From a virus (Duplodnaviria; Heunggongvirae; Uroviricota; Caudoviricetes): a stretch of 27,801 bases of DNA. The translations under genes were made by a program, and so were the position numbers. The first letter of the stretch is position 1; each line of letters begins with the position of its first letter. The notes under the pieces were generated by a model. It saw only the letters and a list, made by a program, of their open reading frames with translations, did not search any database and was not told the DNA's origin. Below, in pieces: positions 4,500 through 26,993 of this stretch. Where the stretch lies: IMG/VR virus record IMGVR_UViG_2802429218_000003, positions 1 to 27,801 of that record; one strand, given 5' to 3'.

Positions 4500-5240
4500 T
4501 TAACTGTCGGTGACGGTGATTTCTGCAACCGCAGCAAGTTCACCATTACCGGATACAACCGGAATGTTGACCTTGCCTGCAGCAACGCCGTTCACGGTGA
4601 TGGTCATACCGCTGACCGACACGGTGGCTTTTGTTTTATCCGCAGACACCGCACGGAAGCTCTTGTCGGTTGCGCCCTCCGGCTGGAATGCCACGGTCAG
4701 CGTGGTGCTCTGCCCTTTCACCACCGAAGTGCTGGCAGGCGTCACGGTCATGCCGGTTGCCGCTGTTACCGTGCTGCGATCTTCTGCCATCGACGGACGC
4801 CCCACGTTGGTGACTTTCACCGTGCGGGTGATCACTTCCTTCGCCGTCACCGCCTTACCGATACTGCTGACCCAGCCGCGGAACACATCGACCGTGCCGT
4901 TCGGGAAGCGGATTTTATAGGCACGGGTATCCCCTTCATTAAACCACGCCAGCAGCGCCTGCTGCCCCTGCTCTCCGGGCATCCACGCCAGCGTGAAGCT
5001 GGTATCTCCGGCGGATTTCTGACCCTGCCCGGTCGCGGTCCAGTCCGCATCTTCATCATCGAGATAACTGTCGTCACAGGACTCAGCGGTCAGTTCGCCG
5101 GGCGTCAGGTCTTTAACTTTTGCCAGACGCAACCAGTCAACGTCTGAAAGCGGATTCGCATAAGGGTTACCGCTCCCCTTATAAACCCACAGGGTGGTCC
5201 CGGCACCTTTCACCGGCATTGTAGGATTTGGTACAGGCAT
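4500..5240 (-). CDS. V: Major tail tube protein V
   Basis: Track ORF is 256 aa; the internal Met at 5238-5240 gives 246 aa beginning [10 protein letters not shown] (as lambda gpV) and has a GAGGA Shine-Dalgarno upstream. Confidence 0.9.
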
Positions 5241-9774: not shown

Positions 9775-13455
<3,681 letters not shown>

Positions 13456-13481
<26 letters not shown>

Positions 13482-14001
13482 TCAGCAACCCCGGTATCAG
13501 TTCATCCAGCGCGGCTGCTTTGTTCATGGCTTTGATGATATCCCGTTTCAGGAAATCAACATGTCGGTTTTCCAGTTCCGGAAAACGCCGCTGCACCGAC
13601 AGGGGGATCCCGTCGAGAATACTGGCAATTTCACCTGCGATCCGCGACAGCACGAAAGTACAGAATGCGGTTTCCACCACTTCAGCTGAGTCTCTGGCAT
13701 TCTTCAGTTCCTGTGCGTCGGCCTGCGCACGCGTAAGTCGATGGCGTTCGTACTCAATAGTCCCTGGCTGGAGATCTGCCTCGCTGGCCTGGCGCAGTTC
13801 TTCAACCTCCCGGCGCAGCTTTTCGTTCTCAATTTCAGCATCCCTTTCGGCATACCATTTTATAACGGCGGCAGAGTCATAAAGCACCTCATTACCCTTG
13901 CCACCGCCTCGCAGAACGGGCATTCCCTGTTCCTGCCAGTTCTGAATGGTACGGATACTCGCACCGAAAATGTCAGCCAGCTGCTTTTTGTTGACTTCCA
14001 T
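13456..14001 (-). CDS. Nu1: Terminase small subunit Nu1
   Basis: 181-aa ORF; sequence (MEVNKKQLADIFGASIRTIQNWQEQGMPVLRGGGKGNEVLYD...) matches recalled lambda gpNu1. Confidence 0.95.
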
Positions 14002-14225
14002 TGTTCATTCCACGGCCAAAAACAGAGAAAGGAAACGACAAAGGCCCAAAAGTTCGTTTTCAGCACCTGTCGTTTCCTTTCTTTTCAGGGGGTGTTTTAA
14101 ATAAAAACATTAGGTTACGGCGAAGAAGAACGGAAACGCCTTAAACCGGAAAATTTTCATAAATAGCGAAAACCCGCGCGCCTGACGCCCCGTAGCCTGC
14201 CGGATCGCTGGAAAGGACCCACAAA
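14002..14225 (-). other. cos: cos region (cosB, cosN, cosQ) upstream of Nu1
   Basis: Minus-strand sequence between Nu1 and 14220 aligns with the recalled lambda left-end/right-end junction (TTTTCGCTATTTATGAAAATTTTCCGG...); the position equivalent to the lambda 12-nt cohesive end is 14179-14190. Confidence 0.7.
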
Positions 14226-14240
14226 TGATAATAATTATCA
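14226..14240. promoter_or_regulatory. Perfect 7-1-7 palindrome TGATAAT-A-ATTATCA (Fur-box-like)
   Basis: Sequence read directly; it matches the textbook Fur-box core. It lies about 40 bp from the putative cosN and about 150 bp upstream of the 14389 ORF. Confidence 0.4.
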
Positions 14241-14388
14241 TCTACATGTCACAACGTGCATCTACGCCATCAAACCACGTCAAATAATCAATTATGACGC
14301 AGGTATCGTATTAATTGATCTGCATCAACTTAACGTAAAAACAACTTCAGACAATACAAATCAGCGACACTGAATACGGGACAACCTC

Positions 14389-14583
14389 ATGTCAACGAAG
14401 AACAGAACCCGCAGAACAACAACCCGCAACATCCGCTTTCCTAACCAAATGATTGAACAAATTAACATCGCTCTTGATCAAAAAGGGTCCGGGAATTTCT
14501 CAGCCTTGGTCATTGAAGCCTGCCGTCGGAGACTAACGTCAGAAAAGAGAGCATATACATCAATTAAAAGTGATGAAGAATGA
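14389..14583 (+). CDS. Small ribbon-helix-helix-like protein (lambda right-end ORF; YlcI/DUF3950-like)
   Basis: 64-aa ORF; the pattern RNIRFPNQMIEQINIALDQKG-GNFSALVIEACRRRL fits a beta-strand plus two helices of an RHH fold; an equivalent ORF is recalled at the lambda right end. Confidence 0.6.
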   Translation: MSTKNRTRRTTTRNIRFPNQMIEQINIALDQKGSGNFSALVIEACRRRLTSEKRAYTSIKSDEE

Positions 14584-14747
14584 ACATCCCGCGTTCTTCC
14601 CTCCGAACAGGACGATATTGTAAATTCACTTAATTACGAGGGCATTGCAGTAATTGAGTTGCAGTTTTACCACTTTCCTGACAGTGACAGACTGCGTGTT
14701 GGCTCTGTCACAGGCTAAATAGTTTGAATGATTAGCAGTTATGGTGA

Positions 14748-14954
14748 TCAGTCAACCACCAGGGAATAATCCTTCATATTATTATCGTGCTTCACCAACG
14801 CTGCCTCAATTGCTCTGAATGCTTCCAGAGACACCTTATGTTCTATACATGCAATTACAACATCAGGGTAACTCATAGAAATGGTGCTATTAAGCATATT
14901 TTTTACACGAATCAGATCCACGGAGGGATCATCAGCAGATTGTTCTGTATTCAT
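14748..14954 (-). CDS. Hypothetical 68-aa protein (lambda right-end ORF; YbcW-like)
   Basis: 68-aa ORF convergent with the RHH gene; an equivalent ORF is recalled in lambda and DLP12. Confidence 0.5.
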
Positions 14955-15238
14955 TTTGTCGCTCCATGCGCTTGCTCTTCATCTAGCGGTTAAAATATTA
15001 CTTCAAATCTTTCTGTATGAAGATTTGAGCACGTTGGCCTTACATACATCTGTCGGTTGTATTTCCCTCCAGAATGCCAGCAGGACCGCACTTTGTTACG
15101 CAACCAATACTATTAAGTGAAAACATTCCTAATATTTGACATAAATCATCAACAAAACACAAAGAGGTCAGACCAGATTGAAACGATAAAAACGATCTTG
15201 CAAACTACGCACTCTCATATCATATGGAAGGTTTATCT

Positions 15239-15649
15239 ATGGATCAGGTAGTCATTTTTAAACAAATATTTGATAAAGTTCGAAACGATTTAAACTATCA
15301 ATGGTTTTATTCTGAGCTAAAACGTCACAATGTCTCACATTACATTTACTATTTAGCCACAGAGAATGTTCATATTGTATTAAAAAATGATAATATAGTG
15401 TTATTAAAGGGCCTAAAAAACATTGTGTCTGTCAAATTTTCAAAGGATAGGCATCTTATAGAAACGACCTCTAATAAGCTGAAATCCAGAGAGATCACAT
15501 TTCAGGAATACAGAAGAAACCTTGCTAAAGCAGGAGTTTTTCGGTGGGTTACAAATATCCACGAACAAAAAAGATATTACTATACCTTTGATAAATCATT
15601 ACTCTTTACTGAAAACATACAGAGCACATCACAAATATTTCCACACTAA
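15239..15649 (+). CDS. Hypothetical protein, DUF1398/YbcV-like
   Basis: Track ORF 15224-15649; second Met at 15239 has a GAAGG Shine-Dalgarno and gives 136 aa; AT-rich; a lambda right-end ORF is recalled as similar but not identical. Confidence 0.6.
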
Positions 15650-15968
15650 ACCATAACGTCCGGTTTCTTCTACCCCAGCACCGGACTGGCTGACATGAAG
15701 AGCAACCCCGCGTTCAGTTGACGTGTTAATAACCCGGTGTACATCGTTTTTGATTATTCCCCCACACTTGTGCAGAAGGAGTTCCCCGTCAGGCTACAGT
15801 CATAATTAATGCAAGAGTACAGCGACGATACAGCGCACAGAAATAAATCAGGTATCCATTGACTTCACAAAGACGGTGCATAGCATCGACAGGAGTAATT
15901 GCGTAAATTGAACTCTTGGCACACTTTAGCCACCGGCGAATCTTCAGCGGATTATCCTTGGCCGGTTT

Positions 15969-16433
15969 TTATCTGAGGCATTGCTCTCGAATGTATAGCT
16001 GTGCCCCTTCAAGTTGTTTTTGCATTATTATCAGTCGCTCTCTGAGGGTGAAATAATCCCGTTCAGCGGTGTCTGCCAGTCGGGGGGAGGCTGCATTATC
16101 CACGCCGGAGGCGGTGGTGGCTTCACGCACTGACTGACAGACTGCTTTGATGTGCAACCGACGACGACCAGCGGCAACATCATCACGCAGAGCATCATTT
16201 TCAGCTTTCGCATCAGCTAACTCCTTCGTGTGTTTTGCATCGAGCGCAGCAACATCACGCTGACGCATCTGCATGTCAGTAATTGCCACGTTCGCCAGCT
16301 TCAGTTCTCTGGCATTTTTGTCGCGCTGGGCTTTGTATGTAATGGCGTTATCACGGTAATGATTAACCGCCCATGACAGGCAGACGATGATGCAAATAAC
16401 CAGAGCGGAGATAATCGCGGTTACTCTGCTCAT
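15969..16433 (-). CDS. Rz: Spanin inner-membrane subunit Rz
   Basis: 154-aa ORF matching recalled lambda Rz ([48 protein letters not shown]...). Confidence 0.95.
16031..16213 (-). CDS. Rz1: Spanin outer-membrane lipoprotein Rz1 (embedded in Rz, +1 frame)
   Basis: 60-aa ORF with lipobox (LVVVGC) and proline-rich stretch, nested within Rz exactly as in lambda. Confidence 0.85.
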
Positions 16434-16906
16434 ACCTCAATCTCTCTGACCGTTCCGCCAGCTTCTTTGAATTTTGCAATCAGGCTGTCAGTCTTATGCT
16501 CGAACTGACCATAACCAGCGCCCGGCAGTGAAGCCCAGATATTGCTGCAACGGTCGATTGCCTGACGAATATCACCGCGGTCAATCATCGGTAAAGCGCC
16601 ACGCTCTTTAATCTGCTGCAATGCCACAGCGTCCTGACTTTTGGGAGAGAAGTCTTTCAGGCCAAGCTGCTTACGATAGGCATCCCACCAACGGGAAAGA
16701 AGCTGGTAACGTCCGGCTGCTGTTGATTTGAGTTTTGGGTTTAGCGTGACAAGTTTGCGAGGGTGATCGGAGTAATCAGTGAATAGCTCTCCGCCAACAA
16801 TGACGTCATAACCATGATTTCTGGTTTTCTGTCTTCCGTTATCAGTTCCCTCTGACCACGCCAGCATATCGAGGAACGCCTTACGTTGATTATTGATTTC
16901 CACCAT
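16430..16906 (-). CDS. R: Endolysin R (lytic transglycosylase)
   Basis: 158-aa ORF matching recalled lambda R ([42 protein letters not shown]...). Confidence 0.95.
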
Positions 16907-17213
16907 CTTCTACTCCGGCTTTTTTAGCAGCGAAGCGTTTGATAAGCGAACCAATCGAGTCAGTACCGATGTAGCCGATGAACACGCTCGTTATATAAGC
17001 GAGATTGCTACTTAGTCCGGCGAAGTCGAGAAGGTCACGAATGAACCAGGCGATAATGGCGCACATCGTTGCGTCGATTACTGTTTTTGTAAACGCACCG
17101 CCATTATATCTGCCGCGAAGGTACGCCATTGCAAACGCAAGGAATGCCCCGATGCCTTGTTCCTTTGCCGCGAGAATGGCGGCTAACAGGTCATGTTTTT
17201 CTGGCATCTTCAT
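16890..17213 (-). CDS. S: Holin/antiholin S (dual start MKM)
   Basis: 107-aa ORF matching recalled lambda S including the Met1-Lys2-Met3 dual-start motif. Confidence 0.95.
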
Positions 17214-17454: not shown

Positions 17455-17530
17455 TGGTGCTGGTTAACGGACTTGAACCGCTACCCATTCGCTTACAAGG
17501 CGACTGCTCTACCATTGGAGCTAAACCAGC
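17455..17530 (-). tRNA. tRNA-like gene, anticodon UGU (Thr-like)
   Basis: 76-nt minus-strand sequence folds as a cloverleaf: acceptor stem GCTGGTT/AACCAGC (7 bp), D-stem GCTC/GAGC, anticodon loop CTTGTAA, T-arm AGCGG-TTCAAGT-CCGTT, 3' ACCA. Confidence 0.65.
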
Positions 17531-17535
17531 ATATT

Positions 17536-17610
17536 TGGCGGGACAGCGTGGACTCGAACCACGATAAGAAGGTTAACAGCCTTCCGTAATGACCTTTATA
17601 CGACTGACCC
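17536..17610 (-). tRNA. tRNA-like gene, anticodon GUU (Asn-like); possibly degenerate
   Basis: 75-nt minus-strand sequence: T-arm CGTGG-TTCGAGT-CCACG, anticodon stem GAAGG/CCTTC with loop CTGTTAA, 3' GCCA; acceptor stem has one T-T mismatch and the D-stem is weak. Confidence 0.5.
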
Positions 17611-17884: not shown

Positions 17885-18508
17885 CTAACGTGTGACCGCA
17901 TTCAATATGTTGTCTGCGATTGACTCTTCTTTGTGGCATTGCACCACCAGAGCGTCATACAGCGGCTTAACAGTGCGTGACCAGGTGGGTTGAGTAAGGT
18001 TTGGGATTAGCATCGTTACAGCGCGATATGCGGCGCTTGCTGGCATTCTTGAATAGCCGACACCTTTGCATCTTCCGCATTCTTTCTCAACAACTCTCCC
18101 CCACAGCTCTGTTTTGGCAATATCAACCGCACGGCCTGTACCGTGGCAATCTCTGCATCTTGCGCCCGGCGTCGCAGCACTACGGCAATAATCCGCATAA
18201 GCGAATGTTGCGAGAACTTGCAGTACCTTTGCCTTAGTATTTCCTTCAAGCTTTGCCACACCACGGTATTTCCCCGATACCTTGTGTGCAAATTGCATCA
18301 GATAGTTGATAGCCTTTTGTTTGTCGTTCTGGCTGAGTTCGTGCTTACCACAGAATGCAGCCATTCCGAATCCGGCTTGTGATTGCGCCATCCCCATAGC
18401 AGCCATCACATCAGTACCGGAAAGAGAGTCAGAGGCCGTAGCCCGTGGTGAGTCGCTCATCATCGGGCTTTTTGGCGAATGATATTTAGCTACGCTTTCG
18501 AGTCTCAT
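17885..18508 (-). CDS. Q: Late gene antiterminator Q
   Basis: 207-aa ORF matching recalled lambda Q in length and sequence. Confidence 0.95.
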
Positions 18509-20531: not shown

Positions 20532-20704
20532 TTCCTCGCACGATGTCTTAGCCACCGGATATCCCACAGGTGAGCCGTGTAGTTGAAGGTTTTTACGTCA
20601 GATTCTTTTGGGATTGGCTTGCGTTTATTTCTGGAGCGTTTCGTTGGAAGGTATTTGCAGTTTTCACAGATTATGTCGGTGATGCTTCGTCGCTGTCGCC
20701 TCAT
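20528..20704 (-). CDS. ninE: NinE
   Basis: Met at 20702-20704 gives 58 aa ([30 protein letters not shown]...) matching recalled lambda NinE; start overlaps the stop of the methyltransferase gene. Confidence 0.8.
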
Positions 20705-21228
20705 GCCGCCCTCCTGACGCCCCGCCCGATCGCCATCAATGCCGCTTTGGATACGGTAGTAAACATCCGTCGAGGACTGATGAGCGGTCGCCAAATCAGC
20801 AGCATGGAGCCTTTGCTGTTTCCCTTCTTCTCCAGCCCTGTCGATGGTTCGATAAAATTAATCCGTCCATCAGTGATAATGCGAACTTCGTCGACACTCT
20901 CCAGAGCCTTGCTGAACCATCCGACTGACATATCCTCTGGCACAAGCATAACTACCGTCTGTCGCTGTTGTATGCACTGCTCAGCGGCTTTTTCCACCCA
21001 CGGCCTGATATTGCTGTACGGTGGGTTATTCCAGATTGCACCGTGGCTTATCCACTCAGAATTTAGCGCGTCGTCGGCCTCAGTTAGCCAGTGAGCGCAC
21101 AGAGCGTTTTTGTCGCTCGCAGCTGAATCCAGCCAGAATCCAAACTCAATATCCAGCGCATCAAAAAGCCAAAGCGGCGTTTGCCAGCAGTCCTTGTCGT
21201 GTGCTGGCGTATTTGATTTGATAGTCAT
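20701..21228 (-). CDS. Phage DNA N6-adenine methyltransferase (Dam-like)
   Basis: 175 aa from the Met at 21226-21228, which overlaps the ninB stop (ATGA); contains the NPPY catalytic motif of N6-adenine methyltransferases; sits where lambda has ninC/ninD. Confidence 0.85.
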
Positions 21229-21671
21229 GCAGCCTTCCCTTTTCGTTGTGACCATTCATACTCTCGCCGGGAGTCATCACTCCACCGCACGTTGCGCTCT
21301 GAGCCGAACCAGAACATGATTTCGATAAGCTCAGTCATGCTGGCCTTTCGCATTTTGCTGGTACGCACGCCAAGCATAACAACGCCACCGTCGATACCAG
21401 GCGCACTTCGTTGCTCCAGTTTTTTGGTCTTAAGCCACAGGGCAGTGAACAGGTCTTTCCAGTCCTCCGGCGCAAGTCTCTCTCCATGCCAAAGCACCTG
21501 ACGCGATACGTCCTGCAATAACGCCCACATAAGGCGGTTTTGAGGATTGCTCCGCTTTGGTTCTTTAATGTGGACTTCGTGAGGTGACTTGTCGTCGATC
21601 GGAAGTGAGAGTATTGCGTCTATGGCGTTGTTTCTGATTGCTTCGTTGCGAAGCATGTATATTTGCTTCAT
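21225..21671 (-). CDS. ninB: NinB recombination protein
   Basis: 148-aa ORF; matches recalled lambda NinB (146 aa) in sequence and position. Confidence 0.9.
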   Translation of the reverse strand: MKQIYMLRNEAIRNNAIDAILSLPIDDKSPHEVHIKEPKRSNPQNRLMWALLQDVSRQVLWHGERLAPEDWKDLFTALWLKTKKLEQRSAPGIDGGVVMLGVRTSKMRKASMTELIEIMFWFGSERNVRWSDDSRREYEWSQRKGKAA

Positions 21672-24627: not shown

Positions 24628-25335
24628 ATGGTTCAGAATGAAAAAGTGCGCAAAGAATTCGCCCAGCGGCTAGCGCAAGCCTGTAAAGAAGCTGGTCTTG
24701 ATGAACATGGTAGGGGAATGGCCATAGCCCGTGCCCTTTCTCTTTCGTCCAAAGGCGTTAGCAAATGGTTTAATGCTGAGTCTTTACCGCGTCAGGAAAA
24801 AATGAATGCGCTTGCGAAATTTCTAAACGTTGATGTTGTTTGGCTTCAGCACGGCACTTCGTTAAATGGAGCGAATGATGAAGATACTCTTTCATTTGTT
24901 GGCAAATTTAAAAAAGGGTTAGTGCGCGTGGTTGGTGAGGCAATTCTTGGTGTTGATGGTGCCATCGAGATGACCGAAGAGCGCGATGGGTGGCTCAAAA
25001 TTTATAGCGATGATCCAGATGCCTTTGGCCTTCGTGTGAAAGGAGACAGCATGTGGCCCAGAATAAAATCAGGAGAATATGTACTCATTGAGCCTAACAC
25101 CAAAGTATTCCCGGGTGATGAGGTGTTTGTCAGAACCATCGAAGGACACAACATGATCAAGGTTCTTGGCTATGACAGAGATGGAGAATACCAATTTACA
25201 AGCATCAACCAGGACCACAGGCCAATAACGTTGCCTTATCATCAAGTAGCAAAGGTGGAGTATGTGGCTGGTATTCTGAAGCAATCTCGCCATCTGGATG
25301 ACATTGAGGCAAGGGAATGGCTGAAAAGTTCGTGA
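24628..25335 (+). CDS. cI: CI-type prophage repressor (N-terminal HTH, C-terminal LexA-like S24 peptidase domain)
   Basis: 235-aa ORF divergent from cro; HTH-like N-terminus; C-terminal domain with the GDSM serine motif (VKGDSMWPRI) typical of LexA/CI autocleaving repressors; sequence is not lambda CI. Confidence 0.9.
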   Translation: MVQNEKVRKEFAQRLAQACKEAGLDEHGRGMAIARALSLSSKGVSKWFNAESLPRQEKMNALAKFLNVDVVWLQHGTSLNGANDEDTLSFVGKFKKGLVRVVGEAILGVDGAIEMTEERDGWLKIYSDDPDAFGLRVKGDSMWPRIKSGEYVLIEPNTKVFPGDEVFVRTIEGHNMIKVLGYDRDGEYQFTSINQDHRPITLPYHQVAKVEYVAGILKQSRHLDDIEAREWLKSS

Positions 25336-25440: not shown

Positions 25441-26178
25441 TTGCAAAATAACTATCTACAGGTTATAGCCTATACTAGGCGCATGAATGATGGTATGACC
25501 AAGCCATTCCTTTGTACTTGCCAAGATGGGCTGGCTTACATAGTTAAAGGAAGGCCAAAACTTCGCCAAAAAGAGCTTGTAGCAGAATTTATTGCCGCCC
25601 ATCTAGCAAAACAGATAGGTCTGCCATGTCCTGATTTTTGCATTGTTGATGTTGATTGTGGGTTAATCGAGTTCATGCCTGACTTGCGTGGTGAGCTTTT
25701 GCCTGGACCTGCATTTGCTACCCGCTTTATTGAAAATGCATCAATCATAAATATTCAACAAGCAAGGAGTGCTGTAACCATTCAGGAACAAAAGAAAATA
25801 TTCTTCTTTGACCGCTGGATAAACAACGCAGACAGATCATTGACTGACATTGGTGGTAATGTAAACATAATTTACGATGCATTTAACAATAGGTATTACC
25901 TGATTGACCATAATCTGGCGTTCGCGCAGGATACAAGATCTCATGAGTATGATGTCCATGTGTATTCGCCGAATGGAAGACCGTGGGTTTTCGACATGCT
26001 CGACGAACCCGAACTGATGGATCTTGCAAATGATGCTATTAGTTCAGTAGAGGAGAAATTTAATCAGCTTCCGGATGAGTGGTTTTCAACCGATGAAGAA
26101 CGAAGGCTAATGCTGAATGAGATAATGAACTGCCTGAACAGAGTGCACGACAGAGAGTTTTGGAGTAACATCAAATGA
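25441..26178 (+). CDS. HipA-like kinase-domain protein (standalone C-terminal-domain type; start codon uncertain)
   Basis: 245-aa track ORF starting at TTG 25441 (AGGA 10-13 nt upstream); alternative ATG starts at 25483 and 25495. Segment ELVAEFIAAHLAKQIGLPCPDFCIV resembles recalled E. coli HipA (EYYCLLLAKELGLNVPDAEII); FFFDRWINNADRS aligns with the HipA catalytic loop VFQWLIGATDGHAKN but has Ser in place of His. Confidence 0.7.
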   Translation: MQNNYLQVIAYTRRMNDGMTKPFLCTCQDGLAYIVKGRPKLRQKELVAEFIAAHLAKQIGLPCPDFCIVDVDCGLIEFMPDLRGELLPGPAFATRFIENASIINIQQARSAVTIQEQKKIFFFDRWINNADRSLTDIGGNVNIIYDAFNNRYYLIDHNLAFAQDTRSHEYDVHVYSPNGRPWVFDMLDEPELMDLANDAISSVEEKFNQLPDEWFSTDEERRLMLNEIMNCLNRVHDREFWSNIK

Positions 26179-26993
26179 CCACACCATGCCTGTATAGCAT
26201 TATTAGATATGCTCCATATGCAGAAACCGAAGAGTTTGCTAATGTCGGTGTGGTTCTTTGTGCCCCGAAATTAGGTCAGTTTTGCTTTAAACTGACCCAA
26301 AGCAACAATGCCAGAGTAAAAAACTTTTTTCAGGATGAAATCATTTTCCCTCACGCGAGGGATGCAATTGCAAGAGAGCTAAAATTTGCTCAAGAGCAAA
26401 GTTATAAATTCAATTCTCCTGAAAAATTAGCAAATTTTTTCAACTACTTAATTGGCAGGAAAGAGTCAATCATTCATTTTAGCTCTGCAAGAGTTGCAAT
26501 GTCTGCTTGTCCACAAGACATGATGCACATACTTTTTAATAAGTTTGTACATCATTCAGAAATAACAAAAGAATCTCGTGAGACCATCCTGACGAGAGAG
26601 CTTAAGCATCGTTTCTCTCATTATAACGAACTCAGGAACGCCTTTAAAAAGGAAATGCTTGGTGGTGAACTAACGCGGTTTTCTGTACCATTTGTTGCCC
26701 GTCACGATGGAGAGATTTTATGTGCTATCAAACCCCTAACATTCACTCAGGACAAGCCTGAGAAAATGTTGGAGCACTGCGACTCTTGGACGGCCAAAAT
26801 TCTGCGCGCCGCCAGTGAAAAAATTTTATCTGTCTCAAATGTGTTATTTACGATAGATGCACCTCGCCAGCCAAGTGAGCTTGAGGTAAAAGCGATGAGT
26901 GAGATTCGTAAGACATTCGATGAGAAAGGTATAAATCACGTAGAGCATCAGGATGAAGCATCAATAGTAAAGTTTGCTAAGCAAGCAATTTAA
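26175..26993 (+). CDS. Hypothetical protein, partner of the HipA-like gene (possibly DUF3037-like)
   Basis: 272-aa ORF whose ATG (26175-26177) overlaps the upstream TGA (ATGA coupling); the N-terminal motif YSIIRYAPYAETEEFANVGVVL is tentatively recalled as characteristic of DUF3037; no catalytic motif recognised. Confidence 0.7.
   Translation: MTTPCLYSIIRYAPYAETEEFANVGVVLCAPKLGQFCFKLTQSNNARVKNFFQDEIIFPHARDAIARELKFAQEQSYKFNSPEKLANFFNYLIGRKESIIHFSSARVAMSACPQDMMHILFNKFVHHSEITKESRETILTRELKHRFSHYNELRNAFKKEMLGGELTRFSVPFVARHDGEILCAIKPLTFTQDKPEKMLEHCDSWTAKILRAASEKILSVSNVLFTIDAPRQPSELEVKAMSEIRKTFDEKGINHVEHQDEASIVKFAKQAI

Follow-up and report, generated by a model that had tools for sequence, protein, structure and literature searches.

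The interval between cos and Rz in this lambda-like prophage DNA raises two questions: whether the small genes found there belong to one functional unit, and how the region came to be without bor, which lies at this end of the lambda genome. The window, by which we mean the whole stretch of 27.8 kb that was analysed, is 96.4% identical to lambda across 87% of its length. Its late genes run along the minus strand, with Rz, Rz1, R and S on one side of the interval and Nu1 and A on the other. We find that the interval (14389-15968) contains three genuine small genes and no bor (Table 1), and that it is the usual three-gene accessory set of lambda relatives, placed between the lysis genes and the DNA-packaging site.

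Table 1. Features of the cos-to-Rz region in window coordinates.
Feature	Position	Strand	Remarks
cosN 12-nt cohesive-end segment	14179..14190	.	lambda alignment stops at lambda 48502 = window 14191
Presumed cosQ heptamer GGGTCCT	14214..14220	-	lambda 48473-48479 by coordinate mapping; sequence intact
Perfect 8-1-8 palindrome ATGATAAT-A-ATTATCAT	14225..14241	.	adjoins cosQ
Candidate YlcI operator array	14269..14328	.	four ATCAA/TTGAT pentamers (14269, 14287, 14315, 14324); putative binding
ylcI-like gene, 64 aa	14389..14583	+	DUF3950, predicted ribbon-helix-helix DNA-binding protein; against late operon
Convergent ylcI/ybcW spacer	14584..14747	.	without strong terminator
ybcW-like gene, 68 aa	14748..14954	-	PHROG 657; lambdap79 orthologue; GGAG Shine-Dalgarno 7 nt upstream
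PdhR box AAGAGGTCAGACCAGAT	15162..15178	.	divergent ybcW/DUF1398 promoter region; identical to K-12 DLP12 ybcV/ybcW site
Recombinant patch	15180..16040	.	approximate ends, from sliding identity profiles
DUF1398 gene (ybcV/ydfO type), 136 aa	15239..15649	+	against late operon; alternative start 15224 = 141 aa
Spacer part 1, ~190 bp	15650..15838	.	diverged homologue of lambda p78-bor intergenic DNA
Spacer part 2, 130 bp	15839..15968	.	without detectable homology to the 439-bp bor cassette of lambda
Weak hairpin with T5 run	15932..15970	+	abuts Rz stop codon; stem 15932-15937/15961-15966, T5 at 15966-15970
Rz (i-spanin)	15969..16433	-	Rz1 embedded at 16031-16213

Three small genes between the packaging site and Rz

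Three ORFs of 64, 68 and 136 aa had been called here from the sequence and their coordinates and sizes hold, as does their AT-richness (31-39% GC at 14750-15650, with 52-55% GC in the genes on either side). Profile searches place the first product in DUF3950 (PF13132, E=3.8e-17, 62.3 bits against a cut-off of 25) and the third in DUF1398 (PF07166, E=2.1e-45, 154 bits, profile positions 1-119 of 119), as the preliminary description had proposed. Its mention of equivalent ORFs in lambda and DLP12 is likewise correct: the DNA of the interval is 90.9% identical to lambda 46867-48502, and the region is matched in 4,770 of 5,426 complete E. coli genomes, where RefSeq labels the genes ylcI, ybcW and ybcV.

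The window YlcI shares 62 of 64 residues with an ORF of lambda, complement(48109..48303), that is absent from the reference lambda annotation, the differences being E30D and W40L. It also matches NCBIfam YlcI_YnfO_N (NF041551, 33.2 bits against a cut-off of 30) and PHROG 949 (E=3.3e-33). YbcW is identical to lambdap79 at 67 of 68 positions (K3T is the one difference) and matches PHROG 657 over its entire length (E=6.8e-47, positions 1-68 of 68), while neither Pfam nor NCBIfam holds a model for it; its dN/dS is 0.41-0.46. Single-sequence AlphaFold gives YbcW three helices at a low pLDDT of 60, and the Foldseek matches of this model are meaningless. The third protein, which completes the PHROG set of 949, 657 and 413, is about 96% identical to YdfO (PDB 2HH8, E=1e-83), 97% to the E. 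coli 55989 prophage allele and 77% to lambdap78, with a dN/dS of 0.19 against the latter. Its 136-aa start at 15239 is preceded by a GGAAGG Shine-Dalgarno sequence 7 nt upstream, and the annotated 177-aa form of lambda is blocked here by a stop codon. Two large protein searches returned mainly error-laden copies of the final ~3.5 kb of lambda and yielded no deep alignments.

The right end of lambda (bor, lambdap78, lambdap79 and the unannotated ORF) matches the window in gene order and in how the genes are oriented with respect to Rz and cos, and its DNA is at least 99% identical over window positions 14250-15150. The window differs from it in having no bor, in its diverged DUF1398 gene, in a degraded bor promoter and 130 unrelated bases in place of the bor cassette, in the last ~70 nt of Rz and in the cosN overhang. 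In the late orientation the latter reads GGGCGTCAGGCG against GGGCGGCGACCT in lambda, 5 of the 12 positions being different, and this variant is absent from the 167 loci fetched. The nearby GGGTCCT heptamer corresponds to cosQ of lambda. The palindrome beside it is also largely kept in PhiR5_1, which is without ylcI.

The bor-less allele probably came by recombination

A tblastn search with lambda Bor gave no match anywhere in the 27.8-kb window, so that the absence of the gene first noted from the sequence is real. It had been thought to be replaced by some 320 bp of non-coding sequence. The gap between the DUF1398 and Rz stop codons is indeed 319 bp (15650-15968) and holds no small ORF conserved in PhiR5_1, but about 190 bp of it are still homologous to lambda and only 130 bp are unrelated. 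In the homologous part the annotated bor promoter TGGACA-N15-TACAAT is degraded to CAGTCA...TACAGC. Seven ORFs of 20-30 aa occur in 15640-16000; six of them are interrupted in PhiR5_1 by stop codons or frameshifts, and no signal supports the seventh (15737-15805, GTG start, 22 aa). The 130 bp align locally to the bor cassette with a score of 17, and a hidden bor remnant was rejected since this equals the mean for shuffled sequences (17.1).

The identity profiles set this gap in a larger context. The sequences at 14250-15150 and 16050-16900 are at least 96-99% lambda, while the patch between them is only 54-90% identical to lambda as against 95-100% to a bor-less prophage of E. coli 55989 type (NC_011748.1, 1781785-1782155). 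The match to this prophage holds over 15200-16300 and includes the DUF1398 gene, the whole 319-bp spacer with its hairpin and the final ~70 nt of Rz. Elsewhere the 55989-type prophage is unlike the window: it has a DUF1441-type small terminase and a different lysis cassette, its YbcW is 76% identical, and ylcI is neither annotated nor found by tblastn. In 71 complete E. coli genomes there is a match of about 98% over the full length of the bor-less junction (15640-16010). The unrelated 130 bp are 98-100% conserved in prophages of the 55989 type, and PhiR5_1 retains part of them. Identity of at least 97% across the left breakpoint is found in one complete E. coli genome only, and this one carries bor. 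O157 TR01 has the left breakpoint of the window but retains bor. Because the exact mosaic is rare, the donor lineage of the patch is a putative one.

These alignments indicate that an allele of about 860 bp, comprising the DUF1398 gene, the spacer and the end of Rz, came from a lambdoid lineage that would never have borne bor at this site, and that it replaced the lambda allele, most likely by homologous recombination between conserved flanks. Decay in place, with bor lost by a local deletion and the 320-bp gap as its scar, is in our judgement very unlikely. Its appeal is that bor is present in 79 of the 80 best IMG/VR loci with a lambda-type ybcW, and a forced global alignment does show a few short similarities facing the leader and the 3' end of bor. 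However, a local deletion would not account for a divergence from lambda that starts at ~15180, about 650 bp before the bor site, and runs ~70 nt into Rz along a stretch that is 95-100% the bor-less lineage. The same junction in 71 genomes, and at 76% identity in PhiR5_1, speaks against a scar as well, and the 130 bp resemble the bor cassette no better than shuffled sequence does.

The plus-strand hairpin and T-run noted at the Rz end of the spacer are present, although the structure is weak: it folds at -11.6 kcal/mol (z = -0.9), 42 of 200 shuffled sequences fold equally well, and the terminator scan did not report it. The structure hardly differs between the window and PhiR5_1, and it could act as a leaky terminator for anti-late transcripts. 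A bolder suggestion would be that the spacer encodes a small RNA or cis element, an RNA of ~75 nt running from an orphan promoter TTGACT-N16-TAGCAT (15859-15886) to the hairpin and ending at the Rz stop. We give this very little credence. The promoter-like sequence matches at 9 of 12 positions, the hairpin does have its T5 run, and the block 15925-15990 is nearly identical in PhiR5_1 while the spacer overall is at 76%; yet the hexamers are not kept in PhiR5_1, promoter-like sites occur in the region at chance (7 observed, 4.8 +/- 2.6 expected), and neither the fold of 15890-15975 (z = -0.88) nor the hairpin alone (z = -0.89) stands out from shuffles. Rfam at its gathering threshold finds two tRNAs elsewhere in the window and nothing else, and between 14000 and 16100 with E up to 10 it gives chance-level matches only. 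The conservation beside Rz is explicable by a recombination boundary within Rz.

Independent assortment of the three genes

The interval had been presented as one module. This does not survive comparison with relatives, which carry ylcI, ybcW, the DUF1398 gene and bor in a wide variety of sets. In PhiR5_1 the spacer is present and all three genes are missing; they appear against it as a clean 1.4-kb indel with ends at about 14246 and 15655. K-12 itself has members of the same three families in DLP12 (ylcI-ybcW-ybcV-borD) and in Qin (ynfO-ydfO). DLP12 shares the PdhR box of the window but, unlike the window, has borD. In Qin and loci of its type ybcW is absent; the DUF1398 gene of the window is a ydfO-type allele, and the C-terminal tail of ynfO is longer and different. 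ETEC1721 has ylcI and ybcW without DUF1398, and distant DUF3950 homologues lie in integrase/AlpA islands that lack all of the others. With such independent assortment in relatives, the three are distinct accessory genes and do not form one system. Their presence/absence polymorphism in collinear phages, together with their atypical composition, is what is expected of morons.

YlcI as a candidate autorepressor

The reading of the 64-aa product as a ribbon-helix-helix (RHH) protein is supported from several sides. The DUF3950 family profile has a single match in the PDB, the CopG-family RHH protein 9kkd (E=0.036), and there is a weak match of YlcI to a HicB-like PHROG over the RHH part of the latter (E=0.0057). 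The AlphaFold model, of moderate confidence (pLDDT 66.7), has an extended N-terminal segment followed by helices H19-32 and H37-63, and Foldseek, with no significant match for this model (best E-value 0.7), lists nearly all RHH proteins. YlcI thus looks like an RHH protein, the indications being in agreement though none is individually significant. By hand alignment it has the small size and N-terminal basic arm of Arc and Mnt of phage P22 and of CopG repressors; the R-aromatic-P motif at the strand end (NIRFP, NLRWP in Arc) and the two helices joined by a loop with an N-capping Ser (NFSA) are Arc-like. Unlike Arc, for which it has no significant sequence or fold match, YlcI is a dimer and DNA-binding protein by prediction only, and unlike arc and mnt its gene stands alone beside cos rather than within an immunity region. 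The DUF3950 core IRFP...NFSAWV is kept down to 36% identity in other Enterobacterales (the species-genome scan used an 8-sequence alignment, a 15-sequence alignment having no conserved stretch), and the C-terminal tail beyond residue 50 is variable. The window copy has L for the near-invariant W of this core, and may be impaired by this W40L change.

For such a protein the preliminary description had considered an antitoxin-like regulator or a small repressor. As an antitoxin, YlcI would form a toxin-antitoxin-like pair with the DUF1398 protein or YbcW, neutralising it, and would repress the operon. RHH domains are common in type II antitoxins, and the HicB-like match, the ParD, MazE, VapB and HicB entries in the non-significant top list of Foldseek and the variable tail of YlcI would fit; in Qin-type loci, moreover, the DUF1398 gene follows ynfO on the same strand at a distance of about 60-125 bp, which is the antitoxin-then-toxin order. 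The gene order of the window is nevertheless not that of a toxin-antitoxin operon, as ybcW is convergent with ylcI and the DUF1398 gene lies 650 bp off behind ybcW with its own PdhR-box promoter region. Neither candidate partner belongs to a toxin family in Pfam, NCBIfam or PADLOC, and YdfO overexpression is reported to be protective (oxidative stress), not toxic. Neither partner is found near some 40 distant DUF3950 genes, and ylcI is kept without DUF1398 in ETEC1721 and without ybcW in Qin. An antitoxin role therefore appears highly improbable.

Operator-like repeats point to the second possibility. Upstream of ylcI lies the only 70-bp stretch in the 27.8-kb window with four ATCAA/TTGAT pentamers (0.04% of windows), including an inverted repeat ATCAATTA-N17-TAATTGAT at 14287-14319 as well as near-palindromic decamers, which lie at -104 and -79 relative to the ylcI ATG. 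Among 50 distinct satellite-borne homologues we found two to four 12-bp GTG-N6-CAC palindromes at about -123, -100, -76 and -30, located exclusively upstream of the gene in the GTDB-derived loci scanned over +/-4 kb. The spacing in the window resembles that of the homologues' sites at about -100 and -76, but its putative sites do not take the GTG-N6-CAC form. The palindrome centres covary with residues 11-14, directly before the IRFP strand, which by hand alignment are the positions of Arc Q9 and N11; this covariation comes from a distant subfamily with 36-45% identity to the window YlcI, and common descent, or a different island protein that binds the sites, might account for part of it. Because the palindromes upstream of the satellite-borne homologues repeat, as they do for Arc, Mnt and CopG, and covary with the protein, we favour YlcI as a small autoregulating repressor and not an antitoxin.

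Host control and strand-set timing

The two anti-late genes, ylcI and the DUF1398 gene, are oriented like lambda bor and would be lysogen-phase genes with promoters of their own. A sigma-70 consensus scan found no promoter upstream of ylcI, ybcW or the DUF1398 gene, and only weak hairpins occur around them; in the ylcI/ybcW spacer a modest one has a z of about -1.1 to -1.5. In K-12 ybcW and ylcI are listed as a convergent pair with overlapping transcripts. Regulatory data have been published for K-12 ybcV, ybcW and ydfO. In a pdhR mutant ybcV mRNA is down 10-fold and ybcW 8.9-fold, Hha binds and induces ybcW, and MotB, which alters H-NS repression, raises both ybcV and ybcW more than 1000-fold. 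The PdhR box taken together with these K-12 expression data argues, by analogy, for autonomous transcription. Host control of ylcI and the DUF1398 gene would be exerted through the exact PdhR box and through AT-rich DNA of the kind bound by H-NS and Hha. As to the products, YdfO overexpression is reported to raise oxidative-stress resistance. The names "head protein" and "envelope protein" given to the DUF1398 gene seem to have no basis, since lambdap78, like bor, is non-essential by CRISPRi.

The ybcW-like gene is alone among the three in sharing the orientation of the late operon; it would therefore be expressed in the lytic phase, from the Q-antiterminated late transcript. Its lambda orthologue was scored essential by CRISPRi only, contrary to earlier literature, and this is read as polarity on the late transcript. 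The statement that none of the genes has an assigned function was nearly true, but is outdated for ybcW: according to a 2026 preprint, lambdap79 activates the Vulcan NADase defence (NIR-domain), its co-expression with Vulcan is toxic, and Lambda-vir escapers of Vulcan delete lambdap79, likely via recombination with Qin. Since the window YbcW differs from lambdap79 by K3T alone, Vulcan activation is expected to carry over to it.

This raises the possibility that at least one of the three proteins serves specifically in anti-defence or superinfection exclusion and that the region is a counter-defence locus. We consider it unlikely. The functional interaction of the lambdap79 orthologue with a defence system is suggestive, and a position at the end of the late operon, AT-richness and frequent gene turnover are typical of such loci. 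On the other hand, being sensed by a defence system does not demonstrate an anti-defence function, none of the three proteins has a significant match in PADLOC (anti-phage defence), and for ylcI and lambdap78 no experimental phenotype beyond non-essentiality is reported.

Discussion

We have brought these data together in a model which, taken as a whole, we regard as probable: the usual lambda-like right-end accessory region, made bor-less by recombination, with gene timing set by strand and with autorepression by YlcI. The gene identities, the mosaic structure and the independent assortment were observed directly. The three genes would act as independent units, each with its timing set by its strand. 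YlcI, as an Arc-like RHH dimer, most likely represses its own promoter via the ATCAA/TTGAT cluster at 14269-14328. The strand and phase assignments and the autoregulation are what we infer from this arrangement, while the effects of PdhR, Hha and MotB/H-NS, the activation of Vulcan and the dispensability of the genes for plaque formation come from the literature on the orthologues.

For the window itself the significance is small. Lambda-like prophages routinely carry this non-essential region, which is made up of well-catalogued genes, and lack of bor is common among its alleles and recombinant forms. If the 2026 preprint holds, the phage produced by this prophage is predicted to be sensed by the Vulcan NADase, and the Qin-type arrangement without ybcW represents an escape route from Vulcan. 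The candidate operator cluster lies 80-200 bp from cosN and, if YlcI does bind there, this binding could also tie the prophage state to cos events.

The wider interest lies in the DUF3950 (YlcI/YnfO) family, so far uncharacterised in the papers searched. We tentatively propose, as a possibility somewhat short of even, that it is an Arc-like RHH autorepressor family of lambdoid phages and of integrase/AlpA satellite islands in Enterobacterales, with specificity set by residues 11-14 and matched to palindrome arrays (in the lambda type, the ATCAA/TTGAT cluster). If this reading of residues 11-14 is true, an xYKG to TKKG change would switch the preferred operator of a satellite homologue from GTGTTTAAACAC to GTGTGCGCACAC. 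The covariation seen in the satellite-borne DUF3950 genes thus offers a cheap and testable route to a function for this domain.

The genes between cos and Rz

The window is a lambda-like prophage whose first 25 kb align with phage lambda over 87% of their length at 96.4% identity. Its late genes lie on the minus strand in the order S, R, Rz/Rz1, followed by the accessory interval, cos, Nu1 and A. The three small ORFs of the preliminary description are all present and AT-rich as stated, the GC content being 31-39% across 14750-15650 versus 52-55% in the flanking genes. The equivalents named in lambda and DLP12 are indeed orthologues, found in lambda (90.9% identity to lambda 46867-48502) and in cryptic prophages. 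Matches to the region occur in 4,770 of 5,426 complete E. coli genomes, and the RefSeq names of the matching genes are ylcI, ybcW and ybcV.

Features of the window around the cos-Rz interval and in neighbouring regions
Feature	Position	Strand	Remark
A	11556-13481	-	beyond cos
Nu1	13456-14001	-	beyond cos
cosN	14179-14190		12-nt cohesive-end segment
Presumed cosQ	14214-14220		heptamer GGGTCCT
Pentamer cluster	14269-14328		four ATCAA/TTGAT, directly upstream of ylcI
ylcI-like	14389-14583	+	DUF3950, 64 aa
Convergent spacer	14584-14747
ybcW-like	14748-14954	-	68 aa
PdhR box	15162-15178
ybcV/ydfO-like	15239-15649	+	DUF1398, 136 aa
Conserved block	15733-15770		GGTGTACATCGTTTTTGATTATTCCCCCACACT, Rz-distal spacer
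Rz	15969-16433	-	late gene
Rz1	16031-16213
R	16430-16906	-	late gene
S	16890-17213	-	late gene (holin)
tRNA-Thr(TGT), tRNA-Asn(GTT)	17455-17610	-	between Q and S
Q	17885-18508		antiterminator
Dam-family N6-adenine methyltransferase	20701-21255	-	nin region, between ninB and ninG
cI-like	24628-25335		repressor
HipA_2-like kinase, then DUF3037 protein	25441-26993	+	245 aa and 272 aa, 3′ of cI-like gene

Pfam profiles recognize DUF3950 in the 64-aa protein (E=3.8e-17) and DUF1398 in the 136/141-aa protein (E=2.1e-45). The 68-aa YbcW-like protein has no Pfam match; it matches PHROG 657 end to end and shares 67 of 68 residues with lambdap79 of lambda. E30D and W40L are the sole differences between the 64-aa protein and an unannotated lambda ORF, complement(48109..48303). 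The DUF1398 protein is ~96% identical to YdfO (NMR structure PDB 2HH8) and 77% identical to lambdap78; the start codon of its 136-aa form has a Shine-Dalgarno sequence, GGAAGG, 7 nt upstream, and the 177-aa frame annotated in lambda is not open in the window. That these are real genes is supported by dN/dS values of 0.19 for the DUF1398 gene and 0.41-0.46 for YbcW, in which nearly all changes fall within the first 17 residues. The labels "head protein" and "putative envelope protein" given to DUF1398 in phage records are unsupported; lambdap78 is non-essential by CRISPRi.

Protein searches were dominated by error-laden copies of the last ~3.5 kb of lambda, in thousands of variants on contigs of ~3.5 kb. 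The species-genome scan likewise picked up lambda right-end DNA, in ~30 assemblies whose taxa are unrelated (such as Streptomyces, Cohnella, Pedobacter and Chromatiales); roughly half of these matches lie on contigs of at most 3.5 kb and the others at the ends of longer contigs. This DNA is most likely sequencing spike-in or control DNA, which makes the DUF3950, YbcW and DUF1398 families look more diverse and wider in host range than they are.

The cohesive-end segment could be placed because the lambda alignment stops exactly at lambda base 48502, window position 14191; by coordinate mapping, we take the heptamer at 14214-14220 to be cosQ. The cosN differs from that of lambda at 5 of 12 positions (GGGCGTCAGGCG versus GGGCGGCGACCT), as do four nearby bases, and this variant was found in none of the 167 loci compared. 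No complete E. coli genome matches the cos region exactly, the best being ETEC1721 (97.3% over 221 bp), which carries a third cosN variant, GGGCGGAAGGCG. Proteins with the same sequences as Nu1 and terminase A (100% identity) are encoded in loci with a lambda-type cosN.

Elsewhere in the prophage, two tRNA genes lie between Q and S, where lambda has none, and the nin region contains a Dam-family methyltransferase gene (Pfam Dam, E=5.8e-64). The HipA_2-like and DUF3037 genes occupy the position of rexA/rexB in lambda. In PADLOC they hit PDC-M66A/B, a candidate defence pair (E=9e-19 and 9e-15), and they probably form a lysogen-expressed defence cassette.

Independent assortment of the three genes

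The interval had been described as one accessory module. This did not hold, since the three genes assort independently. None of them is present in the related phage PhiR5_1, which does contain cos, Rz and the Rz-distal spacer; a 1.4-kb indel, cleanly bounded at about 14246 and 15655, accounts for the difference. Qin-type loci lack ybcW and have the DUF1398 gene immediately after ynfO, and in ETEC1721 ylcI and a ybcW-like gene are followed by gnsB, ynfN and cspI, without DUF1398. The species-genome scan also detected DUF3950 genes of 36-58% identity in other Enterobacterales (~40 species representatives), and their neighbourhoods contain no terminase, Rz, ybcW or DUF1398 gene. At least 14 of these adjoin a P4-type integrase gene, several with AlpA, and the contigs are mostly 13-20 kb, the size of satellites; these loci are satellite or PICI-like islands. 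YlcI/YnfO proteins are also listed in capsid-forming PICIs (2026 survey). The interval is thus a cluster of separate accessory genes rather than one functional system.

Probable exchange of the bor region

As previously described, bor is missing: a search of the whole window gave no Bor homologue, and the non-coding gap put at about 320 bp measures 319 bp from the DUF1398 stop to the Rz stop. None of the small ORFs within it is conserved in a relative of 76% identity. Sliding identity profiles against lambda and the prophage of E. coli 55989, which also lacks bor, reveal a mosaic.

Identity of the window to lambda and to the E. coli 55989 prophage
Segment	Lambda	55989 prophage
14250-15150	>=99%	63-92% (measured from 14600)
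~15180-16040	54-90%	95-100%
16050-16900	>=96%	97-100% up to ~16350, 34-47% beyond

Within the middle segment, positions 15650-15838 are a diverged homologue of the lambda p78-bor intergenic DNA; here CAGTCA...TACAGC stands in place of TGGACA-N15-TACAAT, the bor promoter as annotated in phage HK630. The following 130 bp (15839-15968) take the place of lambda's 439-bp bor cassette and have no homology to it (local alignment score 17, shuffle mean 17.1). Local decay of bor was rejected because 71 complete E. coli genomes contain the same bor-less junction over its full length at ~98% identity; on this comparison, the bor-less state is best read as an allele exchange. All components belong to known families and the bor-less arrangement already exists in dozens of sequenced genomes. 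In E. coli genomes bor is matched at 4,812 places versus 11,228 for the module region, O157:H7 TR01 combines the left breakpoint of the window with a bor gene, and in lambda-vir escapers of the NADase defence system Vulcan, lambdap79 has been lost, likely through recombination with prophage Qin (2026 report). Together these observations indicate that the site is often reshuffled.

The plus-strand hairpin and T-run noted near Rz exist (stems 15932-15937/15961-15966, T5 15966-15970), but the structure is weak (−11.6 kcal/mol, z = −0.9) and was not reported by a terminator scan; the corresponding lambda hairpin between bor and Rz is much stronger (−21.8 kcal/mol, z = −5.2). The conserved block in the spacer is shared by lambda, the 55989-type prophage and PhiR5_1, while the surrounding spacer diverges.

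Expression of the accessory genes

The simplest expression model follows from orientation: ybcW is the sole gene pointing with the late operon, and ylcI and the DUF1398 gene are directed against late transcription like bor, which is expressed from the prophage. The lambda ybcW orthologue is evidently made in lytic infection since lambdap79 triggers Vulcan, and it is dispensable since Vulcan escapers lack it. A CRISPRi block at lambdap79 lowers plating ~10^4-fold although the gene is non-essential; we infer a polar effect on the late transcript, which continues into the head genes. On the opposite strand, bor and lambdap78 were both rated non-essential.

The PdhR box matches without mismatch the box between K-12 ybcV and ybcW, which was found by genomic SELEX. 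In a K-12 pdhR mutant, mRNA falls 10-fold for ybcV and 8.9-fold for ybcW. Hha binds and induces K-12 ybcW, and expression of ybcV and ybcW rises more than 1000-fold with T4 MotB, a protein that alters H-NS repression. The ydfO gene responds to ionic-liquid stress. K-12 ybcW-ylcI is listed as a convergent overlapping-transcript pair, which fits with the lack of a strong terminator in the convergent spacer. These data on K-12 orthologues fit an autonomous, host-controlled expression.

The view that none of the genes has an assigned function still applies to the cellular roles of DUF3950, YbcW and DUF1398, but no longer without exception, as lambdap79 is reported to activate Vulcan (2026 report), the only function-like result found for these genes. 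Since YbcW of the window differs from lambdap79 by a single residue (K3T), it is predicted to confer the same Vulcan sensitivity.

YlcI as a candidate autorepressor

Several individually weak items are consistent with an RHH fold of YlcI. A 15-member family profile has a sole PDB match, the CopG-family RHH protein 9kkd (E=0.036), and a HicB-like PHROG is weakly matched in its RHH part (E=0.0057). In an AlphaFold model of modest confidence (pLDDT 66.7), the N-terminal segment is extended and residues 19-32 and 37-63 form helices; the Foldseek list, non-significant, consists mostly of StnY/CopG, NikR, Arc, ParD, HicB, MazE and VapB. Aligned by eye, the core NIRFPNQMIEQI...GNFSA resembles NLRWPREVLDLV...RSVNS of Arc. 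As a caution for this copy, codon 40 encodes Leu where lambda and nearly all of the family have Trp (NFSAWV to NFSALV); constraint on the gene may have been relaxed, or the protein core may tolerate the change.

A lone RHH protein had been proposed to be either antitoxin-like or a small repressor. Firmer support for an RHH repressor comes from the satellite subfamily, of which 50 distinct protein/upstream combinations were compared. The DUF3950 gene is preceded there by a conserved GC-rich hairpin and T-run ~130 bp upstream and then, at fixed positions (about -123, -100, -76 and -30 relative to the start codon), by two to four 12-bp GTG-N6-CAC palindromes. In those GTDB-derived loci that were scanned to ±4 kb, such sites occur only upstream of the DUF3950 gene. 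The palindrome centres and residues 11-14 of the protein vary together; these residues directly precede the IRFP strand and, in a hand alignment, correspond to the base-contacting Q9 and N11 of Arc.

DUF3950 residues and upstream palindromes in the satellite subfamily
Residues 11-14	Palindrome
xYKG	GTGTTTAAACAC
TTKG	GTG(C/T)ATA(T/A)ACAC
ATKK	GTGCGGCCACAC
TKKG	GTGTGCGCACAC
AKKH	GTGTG(T/C)ACCCAC

Such covariation would be expected of an RHH repressor that regulates its own gene, even though common descent might exaggerate the association and the sites might be bound by a different island protein. The window contains no GTG-N6-CAC site. Its pentamer cluster, the only such 70-bp stretch in the window (0.04% of windows), includes ATCAATTA-N17-TAATTGAT and near-palindromic decamers at -104 and -79, and closer homologues with the same KNIRF strand, in Salmonella and Citrobacter, also have TTGAT/ATCAA repeats upstream. 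Together with the satellite covariation, these operator-like repeats favour the small repressor, and we give autoregulation of YlcI at the candidate ATCAA/TTGAT sites slightly less than an even chance. That YlcI is an antitoxin seems very improbable: the co-directional ynfO-ydfO pair of Qin is the only feature in its favour, whereas the neighbour of ylcI in the window is convergent, the partners of DUF3950 genes are not conserved among relatives and no toxin family was detected. Read as a repressor, DUF3950 may represent an Arc-like autorepressor family with switchable specificity, whose lambda-type binding sites may lie 80-200 bp from cosN.
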